A stretch of 12,626 bases of DNA from a virus (IMGVR_UViG_2695420456_000020), one strand, 5' to 3'. Positions 3,423 through 12,479 are shown, counted from the first letter of the stretch. Notes: a model not told the origin generated them from the letters alone. Numbers and translations: made by a program.

Positions 3423-5654
3423 TTAAATGGAAATCCTTGCGCTTATATACGCGCTATTTCTTATTTCAGGCTGCTTATTGGATGGATTTAAATTCATAGA
3501 TACACCATTTGTTCCAGTAATTATATTAAGTGTTCCTGATGACAAATCTATTGATGTAGCGGTGATTCCCACAGACTCAGTTGGAGATATATATGCTACA
3601 TTCAATTGTTCAGAACCTGTTATTTTTGAGCGTTCATTAGATATAAAAAAATCCACCTTAGCCCCACTTGTTTCACTTCCATTTTTCTTCAAATTGAACG
3701 TTGACTTGTAAATATTTCCTCTGTATACCTGCCTTCTATATTGACCATTTATTGACACTGGTTGATTGAAATTTGTCATATCAGAAATTGGGTACGTTTC
3801 ATACATATGCGCCCCTTGCGTGCCTATAAATGTTTGGTTAAATCTACCATGAGAGCCTGATACAACTATCATGTCATATCCTTCAATCCACCCTTCTTTG
3901 TGATTTATTGCATATCTAGGAATATCTCCAAAGAAAGCATTTCCATTAATATGGATTGATGACGCCTTATCAATGCTGGAAGGTTCAGGGGTGATTAGTA
4001 TCAACGAAATAACTGAAGATGATACGTCAGGTGTTGCACCACATGTTCTAGAGATATTGTTATCACTTACCTTAGCACTACCATTTTTCCAAACTGATAT
4101 CACCGAACACCCTGAAGAAAATTCATTATCAGAATATATCTCAACTATATTATCACTACATACAACAGATCGCCAACCAGCAACAACAACACCTTGAACA
4201 AATGTTCCAGATGAAGGCGATGTTAGAAAGAATTTATTTCCTATTATTGTTACATCATCATGAGGAAACTTCGTTCCAGTATAATTACCATTAGTCCCAA
4301 ACCATGCACCAATCCTAGCATAACCTCTTATAATATTATTACTAAAAGAAATACCAATAAGTTTTTCGTTATTCCCAAGACAATAAAGATTAACACCTCT
4401 TGAATTTATATTATTTGTTAGTATTTGATTGTTATTTATGCTCAAATTGATAATGGTAGCTGTTGTTGAGTTACAACCAATAACTGATGAGTCTTGAAAA
4501 TATGCCCCATCAAGTATGTTATCAGAAATAATAATATTTCTATATACTCCCCCAGCATGTCCTATTTCAATTTGCAAATTTGAGCTTTTGTTTTGAAGTT
4601 TATTTCCGCTAATAATTATATTTGTGCTAGGTGTGCCATCAACTTTAATTCCAAGTATTGCGTTTGGTTGAGCGGAATCAATCTGTATATCACAATTCCA
4701 CGTAATATGGTCCACCTCCATATCACACGACCCGTGACAGTCTTTGACTGTTACATCGGTTGATCCTGCAATATCAACAAAATGTTGATCATGTCTCCCT
4801 TGCTCCACTCTCTCTATAGTTACATTTTTGCTATGACCTAAACCGATTAAATCACCATAATCCCTTGTTGGGGTTGCGCTACCGTCAGTGATTGTAAAAT
4901 CTCTAAAAACAATATTGCCGGCAGCTCCATAGCCAGTTCTAGTATCATAATATTTATTTGTTATCAAGACACCATCCATCCCCCTCTCAGTGGGTAGTCT
5001 CTGAATGATGGTAGATCCAGCACCAGCCCCACAGAAAGTTACGTTAGCGGGAACTCTAATGCATGAATAATTATGACCTGATTTTTCAATGCTGACGTAA
5101 TATTTACCTGGAGGAAGATAAATAATCCCACCACCTAGAGACTCAAGATAGTCCAATGCAGAGTTAATTGCTATTGTTGAATCATTTGACTTTCCAGATT
5201 CACCAAACATTTGTGGTGTAACTACAATAAAAGAATCAATCAACTGCTGAATTGTTAGTCCAGACGAAGTACCAACATGCCCCGCACCATAATTTGACTC
5301 TATTATTGTTCTAAACTGATCAGGGTCATACTTCAGCACATTAGGAAAATAGAACTGCTGCGCACCGTATGCATCATAAACAGCCATTGAATGGCCTTGC
5401 ACAGTTACGAACTTGGCAATCTGTCCGTTATATACAGGATACCCGCCAGAGTTAATGATGATTGGCTGTGCAACAGGAACGTGAGAGCCGTCTTCGTTCT
5501 CCACATAAACCTGAATCTGGTTTTCAGGGTTTACCGGGTCAGTGTCAATTTTACCGATATAAATTTTGCCATTAGCTACGGCTTTAAAAGAACGCGCCAT
5601 AGTGAAGAGTTGCGAAGGCATCCCAATTACAACATTTGGAGTTATATCAGGCAT
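3423..5654 (-). CDS. Tailspike protein (743 aa): P22-gp9-like head-binding N-domain fused to a pectate-lyase-like right-handed beta-helix receptor-binding domain
   Basis: Start ATG at 5652-5654 with AGGA 8 nt upstream. N-terminus [43 protein letters not shown]...[10 protein letters not shown] aligns with the P22 tailspike head-binding domain ([43 protein letters not shown]...). After about residue 113 the sequence has a pectate-lyase-3-type start ([30 protein letters not shown]) and repeated N/D-x-I beta-helix rungs. The track ORF begins at an upstream TTG (5807), which I treat as non-coding. Confidence 0.9.
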
Positions 5655-6065
5655 ATTAGTCATCCTGTTTGAAAATTTAGATATTGAAGAAAACGGAATG
5701 ACTGCAGACAAAGATGCAATTGTTTTGAAAAATAATCTTCTATTCACTTTAAAACCATGCAATATGAACAAAATAATTATTTTACAACAGACAAGAATCT
5801 TGATCAACAGACATATGCTTTATGCGTTTAATGCGTCACTTAAAAATAACAAGTACTACTTTTATTCCTATCGTCCATGATTTTCATTTTCAAATATTAT
5901 TAAATAACAATTCCTATTTATAATATCTGTCATTTAATTTGCTCCAGATACAAGGAATCGCCGCAGCATGGCTACGGTTGGTATTTGTTTGGTTTTTGAA
6001 CTACGAAAATTTCGTAGTGCTATCCATCAAGGCCATCGCCGCTTAGTTGCTGCGGTGAATTTTGG

Positions 6066-6110: not shown

Positions 6111-7046
6111 TCAGTAGTTATGTACTGAAGGAGGTAATTCTTTATTCTTAAGTCTCATCCATGCGGAAAGATTCGTTGGTCCGTCTGGCTCATTGATATC
6201 AACATCTCGTGTGTGATTGATTAAAACGTCTCTCGCCATATCGATAATACGGGAGAACTCATAACCGCAGTCATGACATCTTCCTGAATAGTTCGATTGA
6301 ATTTGTTTCAGCGCCGGATACAGTTCGCGGAATAATGCCTGTGAGCGGTTGGCATAATCCCATAACCATACAAGGCTGTTTGCTTCTTTTGCAGAAAGCT
6401 CGTTTGCTTTCTTCTCTTGTTTGCCGATGAACTCACCTTCAAGTGGAACTCGAGCTGCAAGTGACAGTGCTTCGGTAAACTGCTCCTCACTGATTTCTTT
6501 GTACGAACATCCAAAATGGGATTTAAGTGACGACCACATGGTGATCATCGCCTTAGCCTGTTTTTCTTTTGGCAGATACTGACCGCGACTCATGACGAGT
6601 TGTTTAATGGCTTCCTGCTGTTCAGTGGTGATTTTACCCGGCAACGCTTTTTTAGCTTTGCGTGGGTTAACTACATGGCCTTTAGTCCAGTAGTCATGCA
6701 GCACGCTAAAGCATTCCTCCTGGTACTGAATCAGTTTATCGCGGATGTCAGCTCGAACTTTCTCAGGGTTGATGCTGAACAGCCATCCATTTAACTTCTT
6801 CAAAGGAAGGCAGAGTAGCTTACGAAGCTTCCCATCAGCGGCAACCATATTCATATGAATACAGTTGAACTTATCTAGTTGTTTCATAAGTTTTTGTTGC
6901 TGAGTACCCCAACTCATTCCAAGGTTTTCAACGATTGGCTTCATCGCAACGTATGCAACTCCGGCAGCCATGGCGGTGATAATTTGCTGACCGTTGAATG
7001 GTACGTAAGAGGTGTTCACTGCTTCTAAAATTGCTATACTATTCAT
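6111..7046 (-). CDS. ant: Antirepressor Ant (311 aa), P22 Ant-like
   Basis: ATG at 7044-7046 with GGAG 10 nt upstream. Translation [43 protein letters not shown]... matches P22 antirepressor as recalled, and the gene sits immediately downstream of arc. The track ORF extends upstream to 7112, which I treat as non-coding. Confidence 0.88.
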
Positions 7047-7115
7047 GTTGGTTTTTCTCCACGGATTTACTGACAACCGAAGCCCTGACTGTTCCCGCAG
7101 TTGGGGCTTCAACTT
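7047..7115 (+). ncRNA. sar: Candidate sar-like antisense RNA (antisense to the ant ribosome-binding site and arc-ant spacer); ends approximate
   Basis: P22 makes a ~69-nt antisense RNA from a promoter inside the 5' end of ant, reading toward arc. Here a plus-strand -10-like TATACT (7035-7040) lies just inside ant, and a stem gaagccc (7079-7085) / gggcttc (7104-7110) lies in the arc-ant spacer. Inferred from position only; the 3' T-tract is weak. Confidence 0.35.
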
Positions 7116-7276
7116 TACGCGCCAATGCGCCCTTCCTTCTTAAAGCTTTCCATTACTCTCTGATAAATCTCAGAGTTAACAGACCGACCATTCTCTTCCG
7201 CCACCTTGCGTACCAAATCCAATACTTCTTTAGGCCACCGCAAATTGAACTGCGGCATCTTGCTCATTCCTTTCAT
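7115..7276 (-). CDS. arc: Arc repressor (53 aa, ribbon-helix-helix)
   Basis: Translation [53 protein letters not shown] is near-identical to P22 Arc as recalled. ATG at 7274-7276 with GAGGTG 3 nt upstream; stop at 7115-7117. Confidence 0.95.
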
Positions 7277-7290
7277 ATTCACCTCACAAT

Positions 7291-7311
7291 ATAGGTCCAC
7301 CGTGGACCTAT
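7291..7311. promoter_or_regulatory. Mnt operator (Omnt): perfect palindrome ataggtccaccgtggacctat
   Basis: Perfect 10-bp arms around a central C, identical to the P22 mnt operator core (AGGTCCACGGTGGACCT on the other strand), lying between the Pant -10 and the arc start. Confidence 0.9.
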
Positions 7312-7339
7312 TGAGAATATAGTAGAGTGCTTCTATCAT
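7311..7339 (+). promoter_or_regulatory. Candidate Pmnt promoter (-35 TTGAGA 7311-7316, 17-bp spacer, -10 TATCAT 7334-7339), overlapping and divergent from Pant
   Basis: Hexamers with correct spacing read directly from the plus strand, 28 bp upstream of the mnt ATG; P22 has overlapping divergent Pant/Pmnt promoters. Confidence 0.6.
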
Positions 7340-7344
7340 GTCAA
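7316..7344 (-). promoter_or_regulatory. Pant promoter (-35 TTGACA, 17-bp spacer, -10 TATATT on the minus strand) with the Arc operator (7319-7339) embedded in the spacer
   Basis: Minus strand reads TTGACA (rc of 7339-7344), 17 bp, TATATT (rc of 7316-7321). The sequence between them, ATGATAGAAGCACTCTACTAT (rc of 7319-7339), equals the P22 arc operator as recalled. Confidence 0.85.
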
Positions 7345-7366: not shown

Positions 7367-7621
7367 ATGGCTAGAGATGATCCGCACTTTAACTTCCGTA
7401 TGCCTATGGAAGTAAGGGAGAAATTAAAATTCAGGGCGGAGGCGAATGGGAGATCAATGAACTCCGAGTTGTTACAAATCGTCCAAGATGCTCTATCAAA
7501 ACCATCGCCTGTGACTGGCTATCGCGACGAAGCTGAACGCTTGGCTGATCAGCAGGCAGAGCAGTTCAAGACTGTTGTGTTTGAGACACTTAAAAAGATT
7601 TATGGCAAGGATGATAAATAA
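7367..7621 (+). CDS. mnt: Mnt repressor (84 aa, ribbon-helix-helix; maintenance of ant repression)
   Basis: Translation MARDDPHFNFRMPMEVREKLKFRAEANGRSMNSELLQIVQDALSKPSPVTGYR... matches P22 Mnt as recalled. ATG at 7367 with GGAG 7 nt upstream; stop TAA at 7619-7621. Confidence 0.95.
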   Translation: MARDDPHFNFRMPMEVREKLKFRAEANGRSMNSELLQIVQDALSKPSPVTGYRDEAERLADQQAEQFKTVVFETLKKIYGKDDK

Positions 7622-8157
7622 TGCTGCACACAATTCATTTCTTATGCCCCGTTAACACCGCCACTGTTGGGCAACTTCAGAACCACTGTCTCACCGCATT
7701 ATCTCAAGGCGCAACTGAATTAAATATCCATATATCAAGTCAGGGAGGGGAAACTGCCGCTGGTTTTACTGCGTATAACTTTCTTAAGTCACTCCCTGTT
7801 ACCGTTAGAACTCACAACATAAGCAATGTTGAATCCATAGCTAATATCGTTTTCCTGGCTGGCTCAGAACGTTTCGCAAACCCATTATCAAGATTCCTGT
7901 TACATCCTCTATTATGGGGCTTTGCCACCCCAGCCGCCGACCATGCCAGATTGAGAGAGTACGGGAAATGCCTCGATAACGATCTTGATCGCTTCGTTGA
8001 GACGTTCAATATCGACATCGGAACCCATATTAGGTGGGCATCCCTGATAGCAGACTCGACCATTTTGGATGCTAACAAGGCTCTTGAGCATGGCATAATT
8101 AATTCCATAAAAACTGCAAGGCTGGTATCCAATCAGGCAAACTGGTGGGTTGTTTGA
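7621..8157 (+). CDS. Compact ClpP-fold (S14-like) serine peptidase, 178 aa, translationally coupled to mnt
   Basis: ATG at 7621-7623 overlaps the mnt stop (TAATG). The translation aligns by eye with ClpP: ISSQGGETAAG vs INSPGGSVTAG, Ser72 in NVESIAN vs GQAASMG, His95 in RFLLHPL vs RVMIHQP, Asp150 in ADSTILDANKALEHGIINSI. It lacks the ClpP N-terminal region. Confidence 0.75.
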   Translation: MLHTIHFLCPVNTATVGQLQNHCLTALSQGATELNIHISSQGGETAAGFTAYNFLKSLPVTVRTHNISNVESIANIVFLAGSERFANPLSRFLLHPLLWGFATPAADHARLREYGKCLDNDLDRFVETFNIDIGTHIRWASLIADSTILDANKALEHGIINSIKTARLVSNQANWWVV

Positions 8158-8234: not shown

Positions 8235-8420
8235 TTAACAGCCTCCGCGTCCACGAGTAATTCTGTCGCGGATTTGCTTCTTACGGTGGTTTAGGCTTGA
8301 TAGCTTGGCTTCTGCTTCTGATATTTGCGCATCTAGATCTTTAAGCTCAAGATCTGAAAGTCGCTGGTCAAGCAGGGTTTGATTCAACTCAATGTTGTTC
8401 AGGCGTTCTTCTATGGTCAT
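8235..8420 (-). CDS. Small coiled-coil protein (61 aa), function unknown
   Basis: ATG at 8418-8420 with AGGAG 5 nt upstream. Translation MTIEERLNNIELNQTLLDQRLSDLELKDLDAQISEAEAKLSSLNHRKKQIRDRITRGRGGC has heptad-like leucine spacing. No homolog recognised. Confidence 0.5.
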   Translation of the reverse strand: MTIEERLNNIELNQTLLDQRLSDLELKDLDAQISEAEAKLSSLNHRKKQIRDRITRGRGGC

Positions 8421-8561
8421 GATTACTCCTTGTTGAGGTTGATGTGAAACGATTGATTGTATACGCACTCTTTTGTTAGCTAGTAGCTTTGCTTAATCGC
8501 AAGATAAAGTTTCTGATTAATCCCTAAAAATCAAAAAATAAAGTTAAAACAGGTACATGAT

Positions 8562-8765
8562 ATGGAATGGATCATAGGATTTGTTGTTCTTATCTTCATA
8601 GCCAGTATGTTTAAACCAAGAAGTTGCGATATCTGTGGTGCTGGATTTAAGAAAAAGTACTTCACATGGACTATCGATGGAAAGAAACAGCATCTTTGTC
8701 CGTACTGCAACAGTAAAATGGAGAGACGCAACAGCGATAGGCGCTTTAAGGATCGATTTGGTTAA
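8562..8765 (+). CDS. Small membrane-anchored zinc-ribbon protein (67 aa), function unknown
   Basis: N-terminal hydrophobic helix (EWIIGFVVLIFIASMF) followed by CDIC...CPYC (two CxxC pairs 21 residues apart). AT-rich with rare codons (ata, aga, agg, cga). Followed by a terminator. An antisense ORF (8544-8792) has no comparable features. Confidence 0.55.
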   Translation: MEWIIGFVVLIFIASMFKPRSCDICGAGFKKKYFTWTIDGKKQHLCPYCNSKMERRNSDRRFKDRFG

Positions 8766-8780
8766 CCATTTTATCTCCAA

Positions 8781-8814
8781 CAAAAAACCCACCTGACGGT
8801 GGGTTTCATTTCTT
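8781..8814. terminator. Bidirectional rho-independent terminator between the convergent zinc-ribbon and lipoprotein genes
   Basis: Stem cccacc (8788-8793) / ggtggg (8798-8803), loop tgac, flanked by AAAAAA (8782-8787) and TTTCATTTCTT (8804-8814), so a T-tract follows the hairpin on either strand. Confidence 0.75.
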
Positions 8815-9232
8815 AATCTTGCTTTGTAGACGGTATAAGGGATGCGTTTGCCTCTTTTGGCTTCAAGGTATACATCCCACCATTAAATGGATCAACAGCA
8901 AGCCAACCAATTAACCCACCAAACACAAGGTTTCCACCAATATACCAACCATTAGCATTGGCTTTGATTGGCAGGGTAACTGGTTCGTACCCATCCTTTT
9001 CCATAGTGATCTGGTAACTCTTTTTGCCAAAATAACTACCATCTGACTTGGCAAGAGTTACTCCTTGTGGGGTCTTACCTTGCGCAACAATCACGCCTGA
9101 TTCGTCTTTTACCTTAAAGCTCGCACCGGAAGGATTGCTGTTCACTTGCACAAGCTGTGTTTCGTCACCAACAATAGTTGCGCACCCAGATAACATGATA
9201 GCGCCAGCAACGACGCCAATAATCCTCTTCAT
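8813..9232 (-). CDS. PEGA-domain lipoprotein (139 aa)
   Basis: MKRIIGVVAGAIMLSGC signal peptide with lipobox LSGC (Ala at +2). PEGA-like motif VQVNSNPSGASFKVKDESGVIVAQGKTPQGVTLAKSDG ... MEKDGYEPV. Start taken at ATG 9230-9232 (weak GGAA SD); the track ORF begins 4 codons upstream. A candidate sigma70 promoter (TTCACA-17-TAGGAT, minus strand, 9263-9291) precedes it. Confidence 0.72.
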   Translation of the reverse strand: MKRIIGVVAGAIMLSGCATIVGDETQLVQVNSNPSGASFKVKDESGVIVAQGKTPQGVTLAKSDGSYFGKKSYQITMEKDGYEPVTLPIKANANGWYIGGNLVFGGLIGWLAVDPFNGGMYTLKPKEANASLIPSTKQD

Positions 9233-9327
9233 ATCAATTTCCATATCTAAAAAACCGGAAACATCCTAATGACAAACTATTCAAATGTGAAGCACGAGAT
9301 AAGATCAATCCATCCGTGGACGACTAA

Positions 9328-11496
9328 TTACTCCTGTGTCATTCCGCTTAGCGATGCCACAATCCCAGCCCTCGACAAACGCTGGAACTCTTCGTTTCCT
9401 AGTGCATCGCGAATTGCTTTTACGGCGGCCTTATTTGCCATAAATCTGCGTTCCGCCGCCGCTAATGCGCCATCACTTGCCCCAACCTTAACTGCCTTTG
9501 TTGCCTCTTGAACAGCCTTTTCAATAGCGTAACGACCACTTCTGGTTGCGGATAATTTCGCTATCGATCCTTTTGCTATCGCATCAATTGCTCCACCAGC
9601 AGCGCCACCCACTATTGCTCCAATAACACCTCCTCCAGAGAACCCTGCGATAGCGCCAGCGGTTGGAAAAGCGCCAGACAATACGCTCTCTAAAACTGGA
9701 TGAAGGCCATTCTCAAGAGTGCTAATGGCTGGCATAGAGCGCCCTGTTTGTTCAACATATCGAAGTGGCTTTGTTGCAGCTCTTGCAAGTTCTCCGTATG
9801 AACTTGTAATCCTGCCAAGTTCTGGAGAATATCGACTAATTGCCTTCACGTTTTGTGGGGTAAGAATAGTCGCGATATGCTTAATTCCAGCTCCTTCAGA
9901 CTTACCTCCGCGTACCCCTTGCGATACCGCATCTTGTAATATTGATGCAATTGCTGGCGCGCGTTCCGATTCAGGTAGGGCGCTTATTATTTTATGGAAC
10001 TGACCTGTTCCACTTTTTGCTGAACCCTGTAACGCCTTAGATCCATTAGTTACCAACTGATCAGTTGCAAGGTCTCTACCAAACGCTGCTTCAGCCTGTT
10101 CTTGTGCTGTAAATCTTGCCTTTGACAGATCATTAGCTTTTTGCCAGTCATCAAGAAAACCGCCATTTTGAGCCATTATGCGCATATCTTCCGTTGCTGC
10201 ATCACGAAGCTCAGCCATGCGCCTTGCCGTATTTGCCTCACCAGACCTTATATACTTCTGCTCTGCGTCAGCAAGTTTACTTCGCCATGCCTTCATGGCA
10301 TCAAACGTGATTCCTTTTTTACCAGTTTTAGCATAAGCAGATGCGAATTGTTTCATCTCAGGAGTTAGCGGCATGCCAGCCAAAATATCACCCTGAATTG
10401 TAGCGTTCAGGTTTGACATTCTGGCCTTTGCGTCAGGCATCGTGGAGCGGACGCTATCCCATGCGGCCTTTTCTGAATTTTTCATTTTATCAATACTTGC
10501 CAAAACCCTTTGTTTTATGGCTGCACTTTTTTCTGATGCAGTTCCTGCTTCAGCCCCAAACTCATCCAATGCTGAGTTAAATTTCGACTCTATTTCACTG
10601 AATGCTTTGGTGTGTGCATCCTGTGTAATTCCGGGCTTTGACGCCAGAATCCCCTCCGCCTGAGCAAGACCACGACTACCTGATCTCATGCCAGGAGTTA
10701 ATGCGTTGATATCTATTCCAGCAGTATCTGCTGCTTTTGCTATTTCGTCTGACACATTAGCTGACTGTCTGGCAATAATCTCTCTTCCTGTACCAGACTT
10801 TGCCATTTTCGAAACATCAGCAGCGGAATTTATTGCCCCGCCACCAAGAACTTGAGGTGATTTAGAGGTTAAGATCCTTCCAGCCCCAGAAAGTATCCCC
10901 TGAGCACCAATATTGATACCACCATTAATGGCAGCATTTTGTGCAAAATCGCCCTCCTGATTTGCAGCATCAGCAAGAGAACCTGCAATCATGTTTCCTG
11001 CGGAACCGATGTCTCCTGCGAGCTTTGCTGTCGCTCCAGCAGCTTTTGCCGCTGTGCCAATTGGCAGGAGATACCCCCCAAATGTTTCACCGGCTTGCGC
11101 CCAAGGGTCTGTCGGTCGATCGACAGGGCGATAAACATCATCCAAAACCTTGGGGCCACCAAGCCCCTGGCTGATTGCATTAATCAGACTTGCGCCACCC
11201 TGCAATACGTCAAATGGTATATTTACCAGACCACGACCAGCCTGTTCTGCAATTTGCCCTGCACTTTGACCACCTGTGAGCCAATCACCAGCTTGTTGCA
11301 TCAATGATGGTTCTTCTTTCTGCTGCTGAGGCGGAGGGTATGCTGCATAAAACTGATCTCTTGCTTCAGCCCATTTGTCACCAGCCTTAGGGGCAACAAC
11401 CTCATCAAAATATTGCGCTTGAGCCTGTGCTTTCTGTTCTTCAGTTAACGCCTGATACTGTGGAGAGGCGATAACATCTTTCCATGCTTTAGCCAT
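9328..11496 (-). CDS. Putative DNA-ejection (internal virion) protein, 722 aa, Ala/Gly/Gln-rich; P22 gp16-position
   Basis: Long ORF whose start overlaps the upstream stop (TAATG at 11494-11498). Composition is low-complexity A/G/Q/E/K-rich with a glycine-zipper segment ([31 protein letters not shown]). Function inferred from position relative to immI/tailspike; no direct homology recalled. Confidence 0.65.
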
Positions 11497-12479
11497 TAAT
11501 CACCCCATAAAGACGAGAAACCGGACTCATTGCTGTCGCTTCCTGATTTTCGCTCACTAACATATGTGTCATAACCTGATGAACTATATCCCATTGATTC
11601 AGCCTCCCTTGCTGCAACCTTTTGAAATACATAATATTGCGATCGGATTTCAGATAACTGTTTTCTGACGACCTCTTCAGGCTGTGTTATATCGAGTTTC
11701 GCGATCAGGTTTTCCAGTTTTTGTCCTTCAGCATTGGAGAGACTACCCATACCTCGCATAGTCTGCACGTTCTGGACAAACGCACCAGACTTTAATTCTT
11801 CTATCGCATTACGGTTTGCAATCCCTTCAGCACTTGTGAAGCCATCTATATTTCTTCCTTCGAAGCGACCGATACCTTCAAGCTCCTTCTTACCAAGCAA
11901 AGAATCAATTTTCTCTATCCCTCGCTCACCAGTAATCAACGCATTGTTGTAATTATTGTTGCCATCAAGCCATCTCTTAGCCTGAGACATTCTGGCTGAC
12001 GTTGCAGCTTTACCGGTTAGAGGATCAATTCCTGTCGCTGCTATCTGTGAGTTAAGAGACAAAACATCCATATCCTGAAGTTGTCCTGCTCTTTCAATGG
12101 CCGCCTGTGACTGCTTAAACACATACTTGTCGTGATTCAGTCTTGCCATTTGAGCCTTATAGGAAAGATCCTGCCCCCTAATAGCCCTCGCATTCGTCAT
12201 GTCATTATTGCGAATGGTTTCGTTAATTCTTTGCTGCTCCTGCTGGCGACCAACCATCTTATCCTGAACAGCAAACGCCTTTTCTGGCCCAAGCGCACCG
12301 AGAGACATAGTAGTCAGCATGTGTGATAGCTGCTCTGGATTCTGGATACCTGTCTGAATCATCCAGTCAGCATTCGCACCCACACGATTTAACCTGTCCT
12401 TGTTGTCAGTAATGAATTTACTGTAGGCTTCCGGCCCCTGAGAAAGAGCGACGTTAGCCCTCATGGCTAAATCGCCCAT
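11496..12479 (-). CDS. Putative DNA-ejection protein, 327 aa; P22 gp20-position
   Basis: ORF tightly coupled to the downstream 722-aa gene; Q/N/R-rich, coiled-coil-like. ATG at 12477-12479 has no clear SD (alternative ATG at 12462-12464). An in-frame stop at 12552-12554 excludes a longer N-terminus. Confidence 0.6.

Follow-up and report, generated by a model that had tools for sequence, protein, structure and literature searches.

Coding Evidence for the Small Gene at 8562–8765

The DNA analyzed here is a viral stretch of 12,626 nucleotides (IMGVR_UViG_2695420456_000020, the whole of which is called the window below) representing the right-hand end of a P22-like (Lederbergvirus-type) E. coli prophage adjoining host DNA. 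The subject of this work is a 67-codon open reading frame (ORF) on its + strand that runs from the ATG at 8562 to the TAA at 8765 and encodes MEWIIGFVVLIFIASMFKPRSCDICGAGFKKKYFTWTIDGKKQHLCPYCNSKMERRNSDRRFKDRFG, a predicted membrane-anchored zinc-finger protein. The gene and its immediate surroundings comprise the following features.

8562–8765, + strand: coding sequence of the predicted 67-residue membrane-anchored zinc-finger protein, stop codon included (ORF list, translation and frame conservation)
8565–8612, + strand: codons 2–17, predicted N-terminal transmembrane (TM) anchor, predicted N-out/C-in (hydropathy, flanking charges, AlphaFold2 helix 2–16, architectures of relatives)
8625–8708, + strand: codons 22–49, predicted zinc-binding finger made up of the C22xxC25 knuckle, a β-hairpin at 34–45 and C46PxC49 (alignment, AlphaFold2)
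8700–8759, + strand: codons 47–66, basic C-terminal helix with the invariant S58 and a conserved ...F-K-x-R-F-G end (AlphaFold2 helix 47–66, conservation)
8421–8561, no strand: AT-rich spacer of 141 bp between the divergent orf61 and the small gene
8544–8792, − strand: antisense ORF of 82 codons with a GTG start, not conserved and probably no gene
8785–8806, no strand: intrinsic terminator acting in both directions, at the end of the + strand unit and, on the opposite strand, of orf143; a backbone element shared with epsilon34 (terminator scan, homology)

Homologues were collected by protein searches and locus retrieval, giving 71 loci with 55 distinct DNA sequences from E. coli, Salmonella, Klebsiella and Edwardsiella phages, Yersinia, Serratia, Morganella, Proteus, Photorhabdus, Xenorhabdus, Enterobacter and others. 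The sense frame is uninterrupted in all 55 sequences, with a common start (MEW...) and end (...RFG*), and the variability summed over these homologues amounts to 13.0, 7.4 and 29.4 at codon positions 1, 2 and 3, respectively. Between genera, synonymous sites are saturated while the proportion of nonsynonymous differences (pN) is only 0.13–0.30; the median ratio of nonsynonymous to synonymous differences (pN/pS) is about 0.10 among moderately diverged pairs, and inside lineages it lies at 0.06–0.23 for phage-borne and chromosomal copies alike. These data show that 8562–8765 is a genuine protein-coding gene under purifying selection. A sequence-only reading of the window, made by a model, had named conservation of the antisense frame 8544–8792 as an outcome that would speak against the gene. 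This frame, which is in codon register with the sense frame, carries stops in 38 of the 55 homologues and is open by chance in the E. coli and Klebsiella-phage lineages, and because the sense frame is open throughout and the substitution pattern fits it, the sense ORF is the gene. That the antisense ORF is nevertheless real, or the region non-coding, is extremely unlikely: such an explanation could draw on the antisense frame being open in those two lineages and on annotation by the Prokaryotic Genome Annotation Pipeline (PGAP), which omits the sense ORF in most E. coli genomes and in one of them calls an antisense ORF, but against it stand the 297 clusters of the sense-protein family (see below) and the lack of any Pfam or PHROG match for the antisense product.

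In 11 of the 12 E. coli records shown, from 32 carriers in all, no PGAP feature underlies the ORF, and the same holds for a locus that is 99.6% identical to the window (L001). The record NZ_CP025913.1 (L081) has no feature on the sense strand at the position of the gene; at 1505–1777 on the − strand, corresponding to about 8544–8816 of the window, PGAP annotates a 90-residue "hypothetical protein" (WP_063278160.1), which the comparative data indicate to be a probable wrong-strand call. The exact 67-residue protein is found in GenBank and UniProt as an uncharacterized entry (A0A4Q9CEK0) and occurs on 425 contigs, and literature searches found no paper on it. Among complete E. coli genomes 32 of 5426 are carriers, nearly all at 99% identity or more.

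This sparse distribution, together with the location of the gene in the ant moron, a variable segment of the P22-like prophage, bears out the sequence-only reading in regarding the gene as horizontally acquired cargo. The same reading was right that the gene is AT-rich, the GC content being 0.392 for the ORF and 0.319 for the 141-bp upstream spacer against 0.441 for the whole window, and that it contains E. coli-rare codons, which number 9 of 67 or 13.4% (ATA twice, GGA three times, AGA twice, AGG and CGA once each). The rare codons are not special to the gene, as had been supposed: their share is 2.3% in the host dacC-like gene and 2.8–15% in other prophage genes, so that the bias is real but is a trait of the whole prophage cargo region. 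An AGG at 8551–8553, 8 nucleotides upstream of the ATG, constitutes a weak Shine-Dalgarno sequence. A consensus scan of the 141-bp spacer found no convincing + strand sigma-70 promoter, and manual reading yielded weak candidates only.

Protein Family and Predicted Fold

The N-terminal segment of the protein is strongly hydrophobic (mean Kyte-Doolittle hydropathy of residues 3–17, 2.68) and is flanked by the acidic E2 on one side and by K18 and R20 on the other. Cysteines are found at positions 22, 25, 46 and 49, giving the motif C22xxC25-x20-C46PxC49, and residues 18–67 contain 14 Lys/Arg against 5 Asp/Glu. Hydropathy, residue counts and the pN/pS of about 0.1 agree with the earlier description in that the small gene is real and its product is predicted to cross the membrane once, to carry a metal-binding module of four cysteines and to end in a basic tail; the two CxxC pairs stand, the spacing between them being 20 residues and not 21 as had been counted.

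A profile search of 1.84 billion cluster representatives returned 297 proteins at E ≤ 1e-3 and 74 at E ≤ 1e-10, the family size of 297 referring to clusters at 50% identity. Most of the listed representatives share the signature C-x-[IVL]-C-x3-[ILF]-[KR]-[KR]-x2-[YH]-x-W-x-[ILV]-x-G-K-x3-[LV]-C-P-x-C-N, which in most of them is followed by M-E-R-[RK]-x-S. In an alignment of 40 distant relatives C22, C25, C46, C49 and S58 are invariant; the TM segment is kept in hydrophobicity only, and it is the finger and the C-terminal helix that carry the conservation. Many family members measure 90–100 residues and have an N-terminal extension, some possess a signal peptide and a large N-terminal domain ahead of the TM-finger unit, and others have the finger between two TM segments or have HIRAN, SHD1 or Sel1 domains added. 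Because of these architectures, and in accord with the charge distribution, the finger is predicted to be cytoplasmic.

AlphaFold2, run with the family alignment and with no metal modeled, gave a structure with a predicted local distance difference test score (pLDDT) of 83, in which a helix at residues 2–16 and a hairpin at 34–45 are followed by a helix at 47–66 starting from C46PxC49. Because the second cysteine pair opens this last helix, the model favors a treble-clef-like fold over a classic, two-hairpin zinc ribbon, the class named in the sequence-only reading. Fold searches returned no significant relative, the weak matches being to LIM, FYVE, ZZ, PHD, HNH and L24e-type fingers, and no model in Pfam, NCBIfam, PHROG or PADLOC reaches threshold, with sub-threshold matches to generic zinc fingers only. 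Thus, Pfam Zn_ribbon_8 (PF09723) scores 16.8 bits with a cut-off of 34.4, the FmdB-type model TIGR02605 of NCBIfam does not match the window protein and gives 19.9–20.3 (cut-off 31.3) with two relatives, and the Lar-like restriction alleviation family phrog_6422 matches the cysteine motif only and not significantly (E = 0.021, 16.2 bits). The source name "aMBF1" that some members bear (JGI) is unsupported, since TIGR00270 scores 22.8 bits, far below its cut-off of 110, and matches at model positions 1–37 (the finger) with no helix-turn-helix; likewise, no curated model supports the source name "PFL-activating enzyme-like".

Generic zinc-ribbon and treble-clef fingers (Zn_ribbon_8, DZR_2, zf_Tbcl_Rhp7, FmdB CxxC_CxxC_SSSS and the N-terminal finger of aMBF1) have in common with the protein two CxxC pairs some 20 residues apart with a hairpin between them, and their profiles match weakly over residues 21–58. 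They differ from it in that the protein has a membrane anchor, the hairpin signature W36/G40/K41-K42 and a C-terminal helix with S58. On sequence grounds we would define the family as separate from the generic zinc fingers, with no model of its own.

Association with the Mnt Operon in Temperate Phages

The small gene is situated to the right of the immI genes of the prophage, which in the window are arranged as follows.

6111–7112, − strand: Ant
7047–7114: sar RNA (Rfam, 95.6 bits)
7115–7339, − strand: Arc
7311–7344, no strand: overlapping divergent promoter-like sites equivalent to Pmnt (+) and Pant (−) (promoter scan; layout as annotated in P22)
7367–7621, + strand: mnt, maintenance repressor with an Arc-type ribbon-helix-helix (RHH) and Mnt C-terminal domain, opening the + strand unit whose last member is the small gene (Pfam)
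7621–8157, + strand: ClpP-like serine-protease gene, 178 residues, coupled to mnt by a TAATG overlap (Pfam CLP_protease, 4.3e-12)
8235–8420, − strand: orf61 (phrog_7586), small late-strand gene between the mnt operon and the small gene, present in all E. coli P22-like carriers

The promoter-like sites read TTGAGA-17-TATCAT on the + strand and TTGACA-17-TATATT on the − strand, and the Mnt protein matches the Pfam models Arc (4.9e-30) and Repressor_Mnt (3.5e-12). Checking context across relatives, as the sequence-only reading had advised, revealed, next to the conserved frame, a recurrent gene order. Of 46 phage or prophage loci whose upstream sequence is long enough, 43 have a Mnt/Arc-type gene upstream of the small gene and on its strand, and 44 have a divergently oriented antirepressor gene (Ant, Rha or KilA). 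The Mnt/Arc match ends at most 260 nucleotides from the small gene in 27 loci, gaps often measuring 6–35 nucleotides; in Edwardsiella phage Edno5 and Klebsiella phage KP12 a Mnt-like RHH gene precedes the start of the homologue by 20–22 nucleotides and is itself divergent from an Arc-like gene and an Ant, Rha or KilA antirepressor gene. Two Klebsiella phages that have no annotation, klb_E and KpnBHU6, encode a homologue too. At least five Mnt sequence types, with 31–71% mutual identity, are found beside the gene, while the small protein is 63–82% identical. More distant relatives include one located on the same strand between a CI-like repressor and an integrase gene in an unrelated element (L084), one adjoining an integrase gene (L077), and a partial relative that lacks the first cysteine pair (L083), single-protein searches of viral contigs having yielded L084 and L083. 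Gene order across these loci shows that, in Enterobacterales temperate phages, the gene is the distal co-directional member of the putative mnt operon and is oriented opposite to the late operon. This link between the family and the Mnt operon of immI modules is previously unremarked.

The E. coli P22-like carriers have the order mnt, a 69-residue ORF (replaced in the window by the ClpP-like gene), orf61 on the opposite strand, and the small gene. A terminator scan detected none between the mnt operon and the small gene, so that read-through from Pmnt would be possible. In P22 the unit Pmnt-mnt-orf59a-terminator precedes sieA, which is on the same strand, and since the genes beyond mnt are there first orf59a, unrelated to the small gene, and then sieA, the position after mnt appears to be a general slot for prophage-expressed cargo. 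Homology of the small gene to orf59a, which directly follows mnt in P22 and so occupies the same slot, was considered and rejected as no match was found. The mnt region is transcribed from P22-like prophages (PMC2629481), and a 40-fold induction of this region in macrophages is on record for the E. coli LF82 prophage Gally (PMC9928086). From the distal, co-directional place of the gene in a prophage-expressed operon we infer that its product is made in lysogens; given this context, H-NS silencing, which the sequence-only reading had envisaged, would be the less natural expectation.

Copies Outside Phages

The gene is phage cargo, as had been proposed, but not cargo only, for orphan chromosomal copies under purifying selection occur in many Enterobacterales. 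About 20 species have such copies in housekeeping neighborhoods, some apparently inherited vertically within the genus (Morganella, Photorhabdus, Proteus), and none of the 23 chromosomal loci has Ant, Arc or Mnt (immI) genes nearby. The site is constant within a genus and different between genera, and upstream regions are not conserved between genera. Thus, the homologue is the first gene after tRNA selC, beside yicI/yicJ-like genes, in Enterobacter and Lelliottia, stands alone between ABC-2 transporter and U32 peptidase genes in Morganella, follows an ABC transporter gene in Photorhabdus, and lies between rbsD and dxs in Proteus. Strong Shine-Dalgarno sequences precede the stable orphan copies, beside which no antitoxin partner can be seen. 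By eye, a CRP-like box (TGTGA-N6-TCAC[T/A]) can be discerned some 80 nucleotides upstream of the start, followed by a possible extended −10 element, in all seven Enterobacter/Lelliottia loci (L011, L014, L018, L024, L025, L027 and L030).

Plasmids carry the gene as well. The 5.1-kb ColE1-type Klebsiella plasmid NZ_CP141991.1 (L079, 5098 bp) encodes a 69-residue homologue after an RHH-ParE pair, and a unit of RHH, ParE and homologue is inserted in the chromosome of Rosenbergiella gaditana (L009) with 90–94% identity. On the plasmid a TraY-type RHH gene, a RelE/ParE toxin gene and the homologue share one strand (4219–4940, −), and the plasmid also encodes a WYL-domain protein. The link to ParE/RHH is real but stems from one mobile lineage, and we rejected ParE/RHH as a general partner; a resemblance of a small gene on this plasmid to P22 orf59a, suspected by eye, was dropped as no alignment was found. 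In E. marmotae IncF plasmids the homologue is 1.8 kb from a defense reverse transcriptase gene (DRT, RT_UG4), and large Pantoea plasmids have a homologue at 44% identity. Neither of the two plasmid contexts examined for them, the 5.1-kb Klebsiella plasmid and an E. marmotae IncF plasmid, has Ant, Arc or Mnt genes nearby.

Proposed Function and Alternative Explanations

We propose that the product is a bitopic inner-membrane protein with a 16-residue N-terminal anchor and its N-terminus predicted outside. Its cytoplasmic domain would be strongly basic (net charge about +9), with the four invariant cysteines predicted to hold one zinc in a treble-clef-like finger followed by a basic helix. Transcription would take place in the lysogen, by read-through from Pmnt and/or from a weak spacer promoter, and not in late lytic growth. 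The protein would thus be a prophage accessory ("moron") protein at the cytoplasmic face of the inner membrane, where the basic finger and helix would bind incoming nucleic acid or a membrane-proximal protein. The likeliest outcome would be exclusion of, or defense against, superinfecting DNA, a role analogous and not homologous to that of P22 SieA, and chromosomal and plasmid orphan copies would protect their carriers likewise. The parts of this proposal differ in strength. A bitopic N-out/C-in inner-membrane protein with a zinc-binding basic cytoplasmic finger, made in lysogens, has good inferential support. The overall picture, in which this lysogen-expressed accessory protein protects its carrier, is put forward tentatively, with somewhat less than even confidence. 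Superinfection exclusion in particular, suggested by the positional analogy to sieA, the neighborhoods rich in defense and toxin-antitoxin genes and the basic membrane-tethered finger, is a doubtful guess. The furthest-reaching form of the idea would have a new membrane-tethered treble-clef family, housed in the immI Mnt operons of several temperate-phage lineages and domesticated as single-gene islets in many Enterobacterales, act at the inner membrane face and intercept either the DNA of an entering phage or plasmid or the injection conduit at its cytoplasmic end; we consider this unlikely.

P22 SieA is the closest known system by position. It too is encoded in the ant moron compartment between gene 16 and the tailspike gene, on the mnt strand and opposite to the late operon, and it is a prophage-expressed inner-membrane protein (PMC10883804, PMC2629481), properties that for the present protein are predicted (the anchor) and inferred (expression). 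SieA differs in having 164 residues, several long hydrophobic stretches and no cysteine motif, compared with 67 residues, a single TM helix and a four-cysteine finger in the present protein. The type I toxins Hok, TisB, Ldr and ZorO resemble the protein in being small, with a single hydrophobic helix, and in residing in prophages, plasmids and intergenic islets; they differ from it in that the protein has a conserved, basic, cysteine-rich soluble domain and is operonic with a repressor gene. With HK97 gp15 and YebO-type morons there is an analogy of lifestyle only, and we know of no zinc finger in gp15. This small single-TM prophage moron, which has chromosomal relatives in Enterobacteriaceae, is said to block phage DNA entry, reportedly the finding of Cumby et al. 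2012. The protein is best classed with the prophage-expressed small membrane morons, with no sign yet of an unusual mechanism. To call such proteins typical of exclusion or toxin-like factors, as the sequence-only reading did, goes too far, as no homology to a known exclusion, defense or toxin family was found.

Several observations weigh against a protective, lysogen-expressed protein. In the lineage of the window, the gene is cut off from the mnt operon by orf61 on the opposite strand and by the 141-bp spacer, and low expression is predicted there from a weak Shine-Dalgarno sequence, rare codons and the AT-richness of the spacer. No defense model in PADLOC-DB v2 is matched by the window protein or three relatives, and a tblastn search with P22 SieA (164 residues) against all fetched loci, in which the P22 type alone was queried, matched P22 itself only. 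Zinc binding and membrane insertion of the protein are model-based predictions, and the orphan copies fit a cellular role as well as a defense role.

Such a cellular role could be that of a small host-regulatory membrane protein in the manner of MgrB, AcrZ or MgtS, in which the finger would tune an inner-membrane enzyme, transporter or sensor and the gene would be a fitness moron. The fixed chromosomal sites within genera, where orphan copies evolve at a pN/pS of 0.10–0.23, speak for it, as do a distant member encoded in a housekeeping operon between a radical-SAM gene and a uridine kinase gene, the conserved CRP-like box (by eye) of the Enterobacter copies, and the breadth of the wider family with its 297 clusters and diverse fusions. 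We nevertheless regard it as rather doubtful: many small regulators work via their TM segment, whereas here the TM helix is the least conserved part, the placement in phage repressor operons at 43 of 46 loci is left unexplained, and chromosomal sites that vary by genus, and include the edge of the tRNA selC island, point to mobile cargo and not to a core gene. Alternatively, the protein would be a working part of the immI circuit that affects prophage maintenance or induction, for instance by tethering or sequestering the antirepressor, Mnt or another regulator at the membrane. Both the tight linkage to at least five Mnt types that have diverged further than the small protein itself and the 6–35 nucleotide gaps, which suggest translational or operon coupling, would suit this idea, but the immI regions of P22, epsilon34, Gally and Kapi1 are functional without the gene, the P22 slot holds the unrelated orf59a, and all 23 chromosomal copies as well as the two plasmid contexts do without Ant, Arc and Mnt, making it quite unlikely.

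Very unlikely, in our estimate, is a toxin-like membrane protein (type I toxin, abortive-infection effector or holin-like pore) that damages the membrane at a raised level. Small size and a single TM helix would be in keeping with a toxin, and RHH-ParE on the 5.1-kb plasmid, the SocA/Panacea pair in sister prophages and late-operon transcription antisense to the gene provide a suggestive setting. However, ParE is associated with the gene in one mobile lineage only, conservation resides in the soluble finger and not in the hydrophobic helix, and the stable orphan copies combine strong Shine-Dalgarno sequences with no visible antitoxin. Moreover, in many loci the gene is located 6–35 nucleotides after mnt, presumably co-transcribed with a constitutive repressor, leaving no room for a long leader or an antisense RNA gene; no such leader or antisense RNA was found near the gene, and an Rfam scan detected near it no RNA family other than the sar RNA (7047–7114), an immI component with no link to the gene.

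Should the protective, lysogen-expressed membrane protein be the right reading, the Mnt-operon link across phage lineages would mark a lysogen-expressed function, and the gene would be a candidate for a new exclusion or defense activity in the immI/ant moron region, where SieA alone has a known exclusion role. If it is a minor membrane protein with no phage phenotype, it is ordinary prophage cargo. Any phenotype would annotate many genes at once, in view of a 297-cluster family that has neither a model nor a structural relative, and small proteins like this one are systematically missed, RefSeq mostly lacking an annotation in the E. coli carriers and making at least one wrong-strand call.

Remaining Features of the Prophage End

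The remaining features of the window are the following.

1459–2631, left part of the window: host dacC-like penicillin-binding protein gene
3423–5807, − strand: tailspike with P22 head-binding domain (Pfam match to the N-terminal domain only)
8813–9244, − strand: orf143, lipoprotein-like, signal MKRIIGVVAGAIMLSGC (weak PEGA-domain match; phrog_6823, homologue of epsilon34 gp15)
9328–12479, − strand: ejection-protein genes 16 and 20

Owing to its translational coupling to mnt, the ClpP-like gene is expected to be expressed in the lysogen. Of the E. coli P22-like carrier loci inspected, only the window and L032 have it, its slot elsewhere being taken by the 69-residue ORF or, in L040, by a 105-residue ORF. 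We know of no prohead protease in use in P22-like phages; the 178-residue protein has no PADLOC match and may be a decoy or a defense protease. In sister prophages (L033–L043) the mnt operon ends in a + strand ORF that runs convergently into the 3′ end of orf61, overlapping it by about 25 nucleotides, and with the operon converging on orf61 in this manner transcription from Pmnt would cross it antisense. The orf61 sequence looks coiled-coil-like by eye. Its role as an obligate partner of the small gene was rejected, as Kapi1 and Emek have orf61 without the gene; in Kapi1 the slot beside orf61 contains a different small gene with a signal peptide.

The term "ant moron" (Villafane et al.) denotes an insertion of variable content that separates gene 16 from the tailspike gene and in P22 contains immI (mnt, arc, ant, sar), sieA and orf59a (PMC2629481). 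The window shares homology with epsilon34, Gally and 720R6 only from about 8780 onward, starting at the terminator, one being annotated there in epsilon34, and the small gene is therefore placed in the variable part of the prophage. Past this terminator the cargo of sister E. coli prophages varies, being a SocA/Panacea pair, a P63C-domain protein or a lipoprotein, and P22-type sieA was not found at these loci by tblastn with P22 SieA. Judged by its gene content, the interval from gene 16 to mnt behaves as a probable defense and toxin-antitoxin hot spot. In L035 (5248–6125, −) the pair consists of a SocA/Panacea antitoxin (2.2e-24) and a 140-residue partner with a weak PADLOC match to NsnC, and the P63C-domain protein of L033 (5206–6174, −) has 322 residues. 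In the window orf143 comes directly past the shared terminator, and its N-terminus weakly resembles the signal of the Cor exclusion lipoprotein.

Because Pfam matches the N-terminal head-binding domain only, the receptor-binding part of the tailspike appears to have been replaced recently by foreign sequence. No other part of the window is as AT-rich as the tailspike gene, whose GC content is 0.29–0.44 in sliding windows and 0.27 at third codon positions (GC3).

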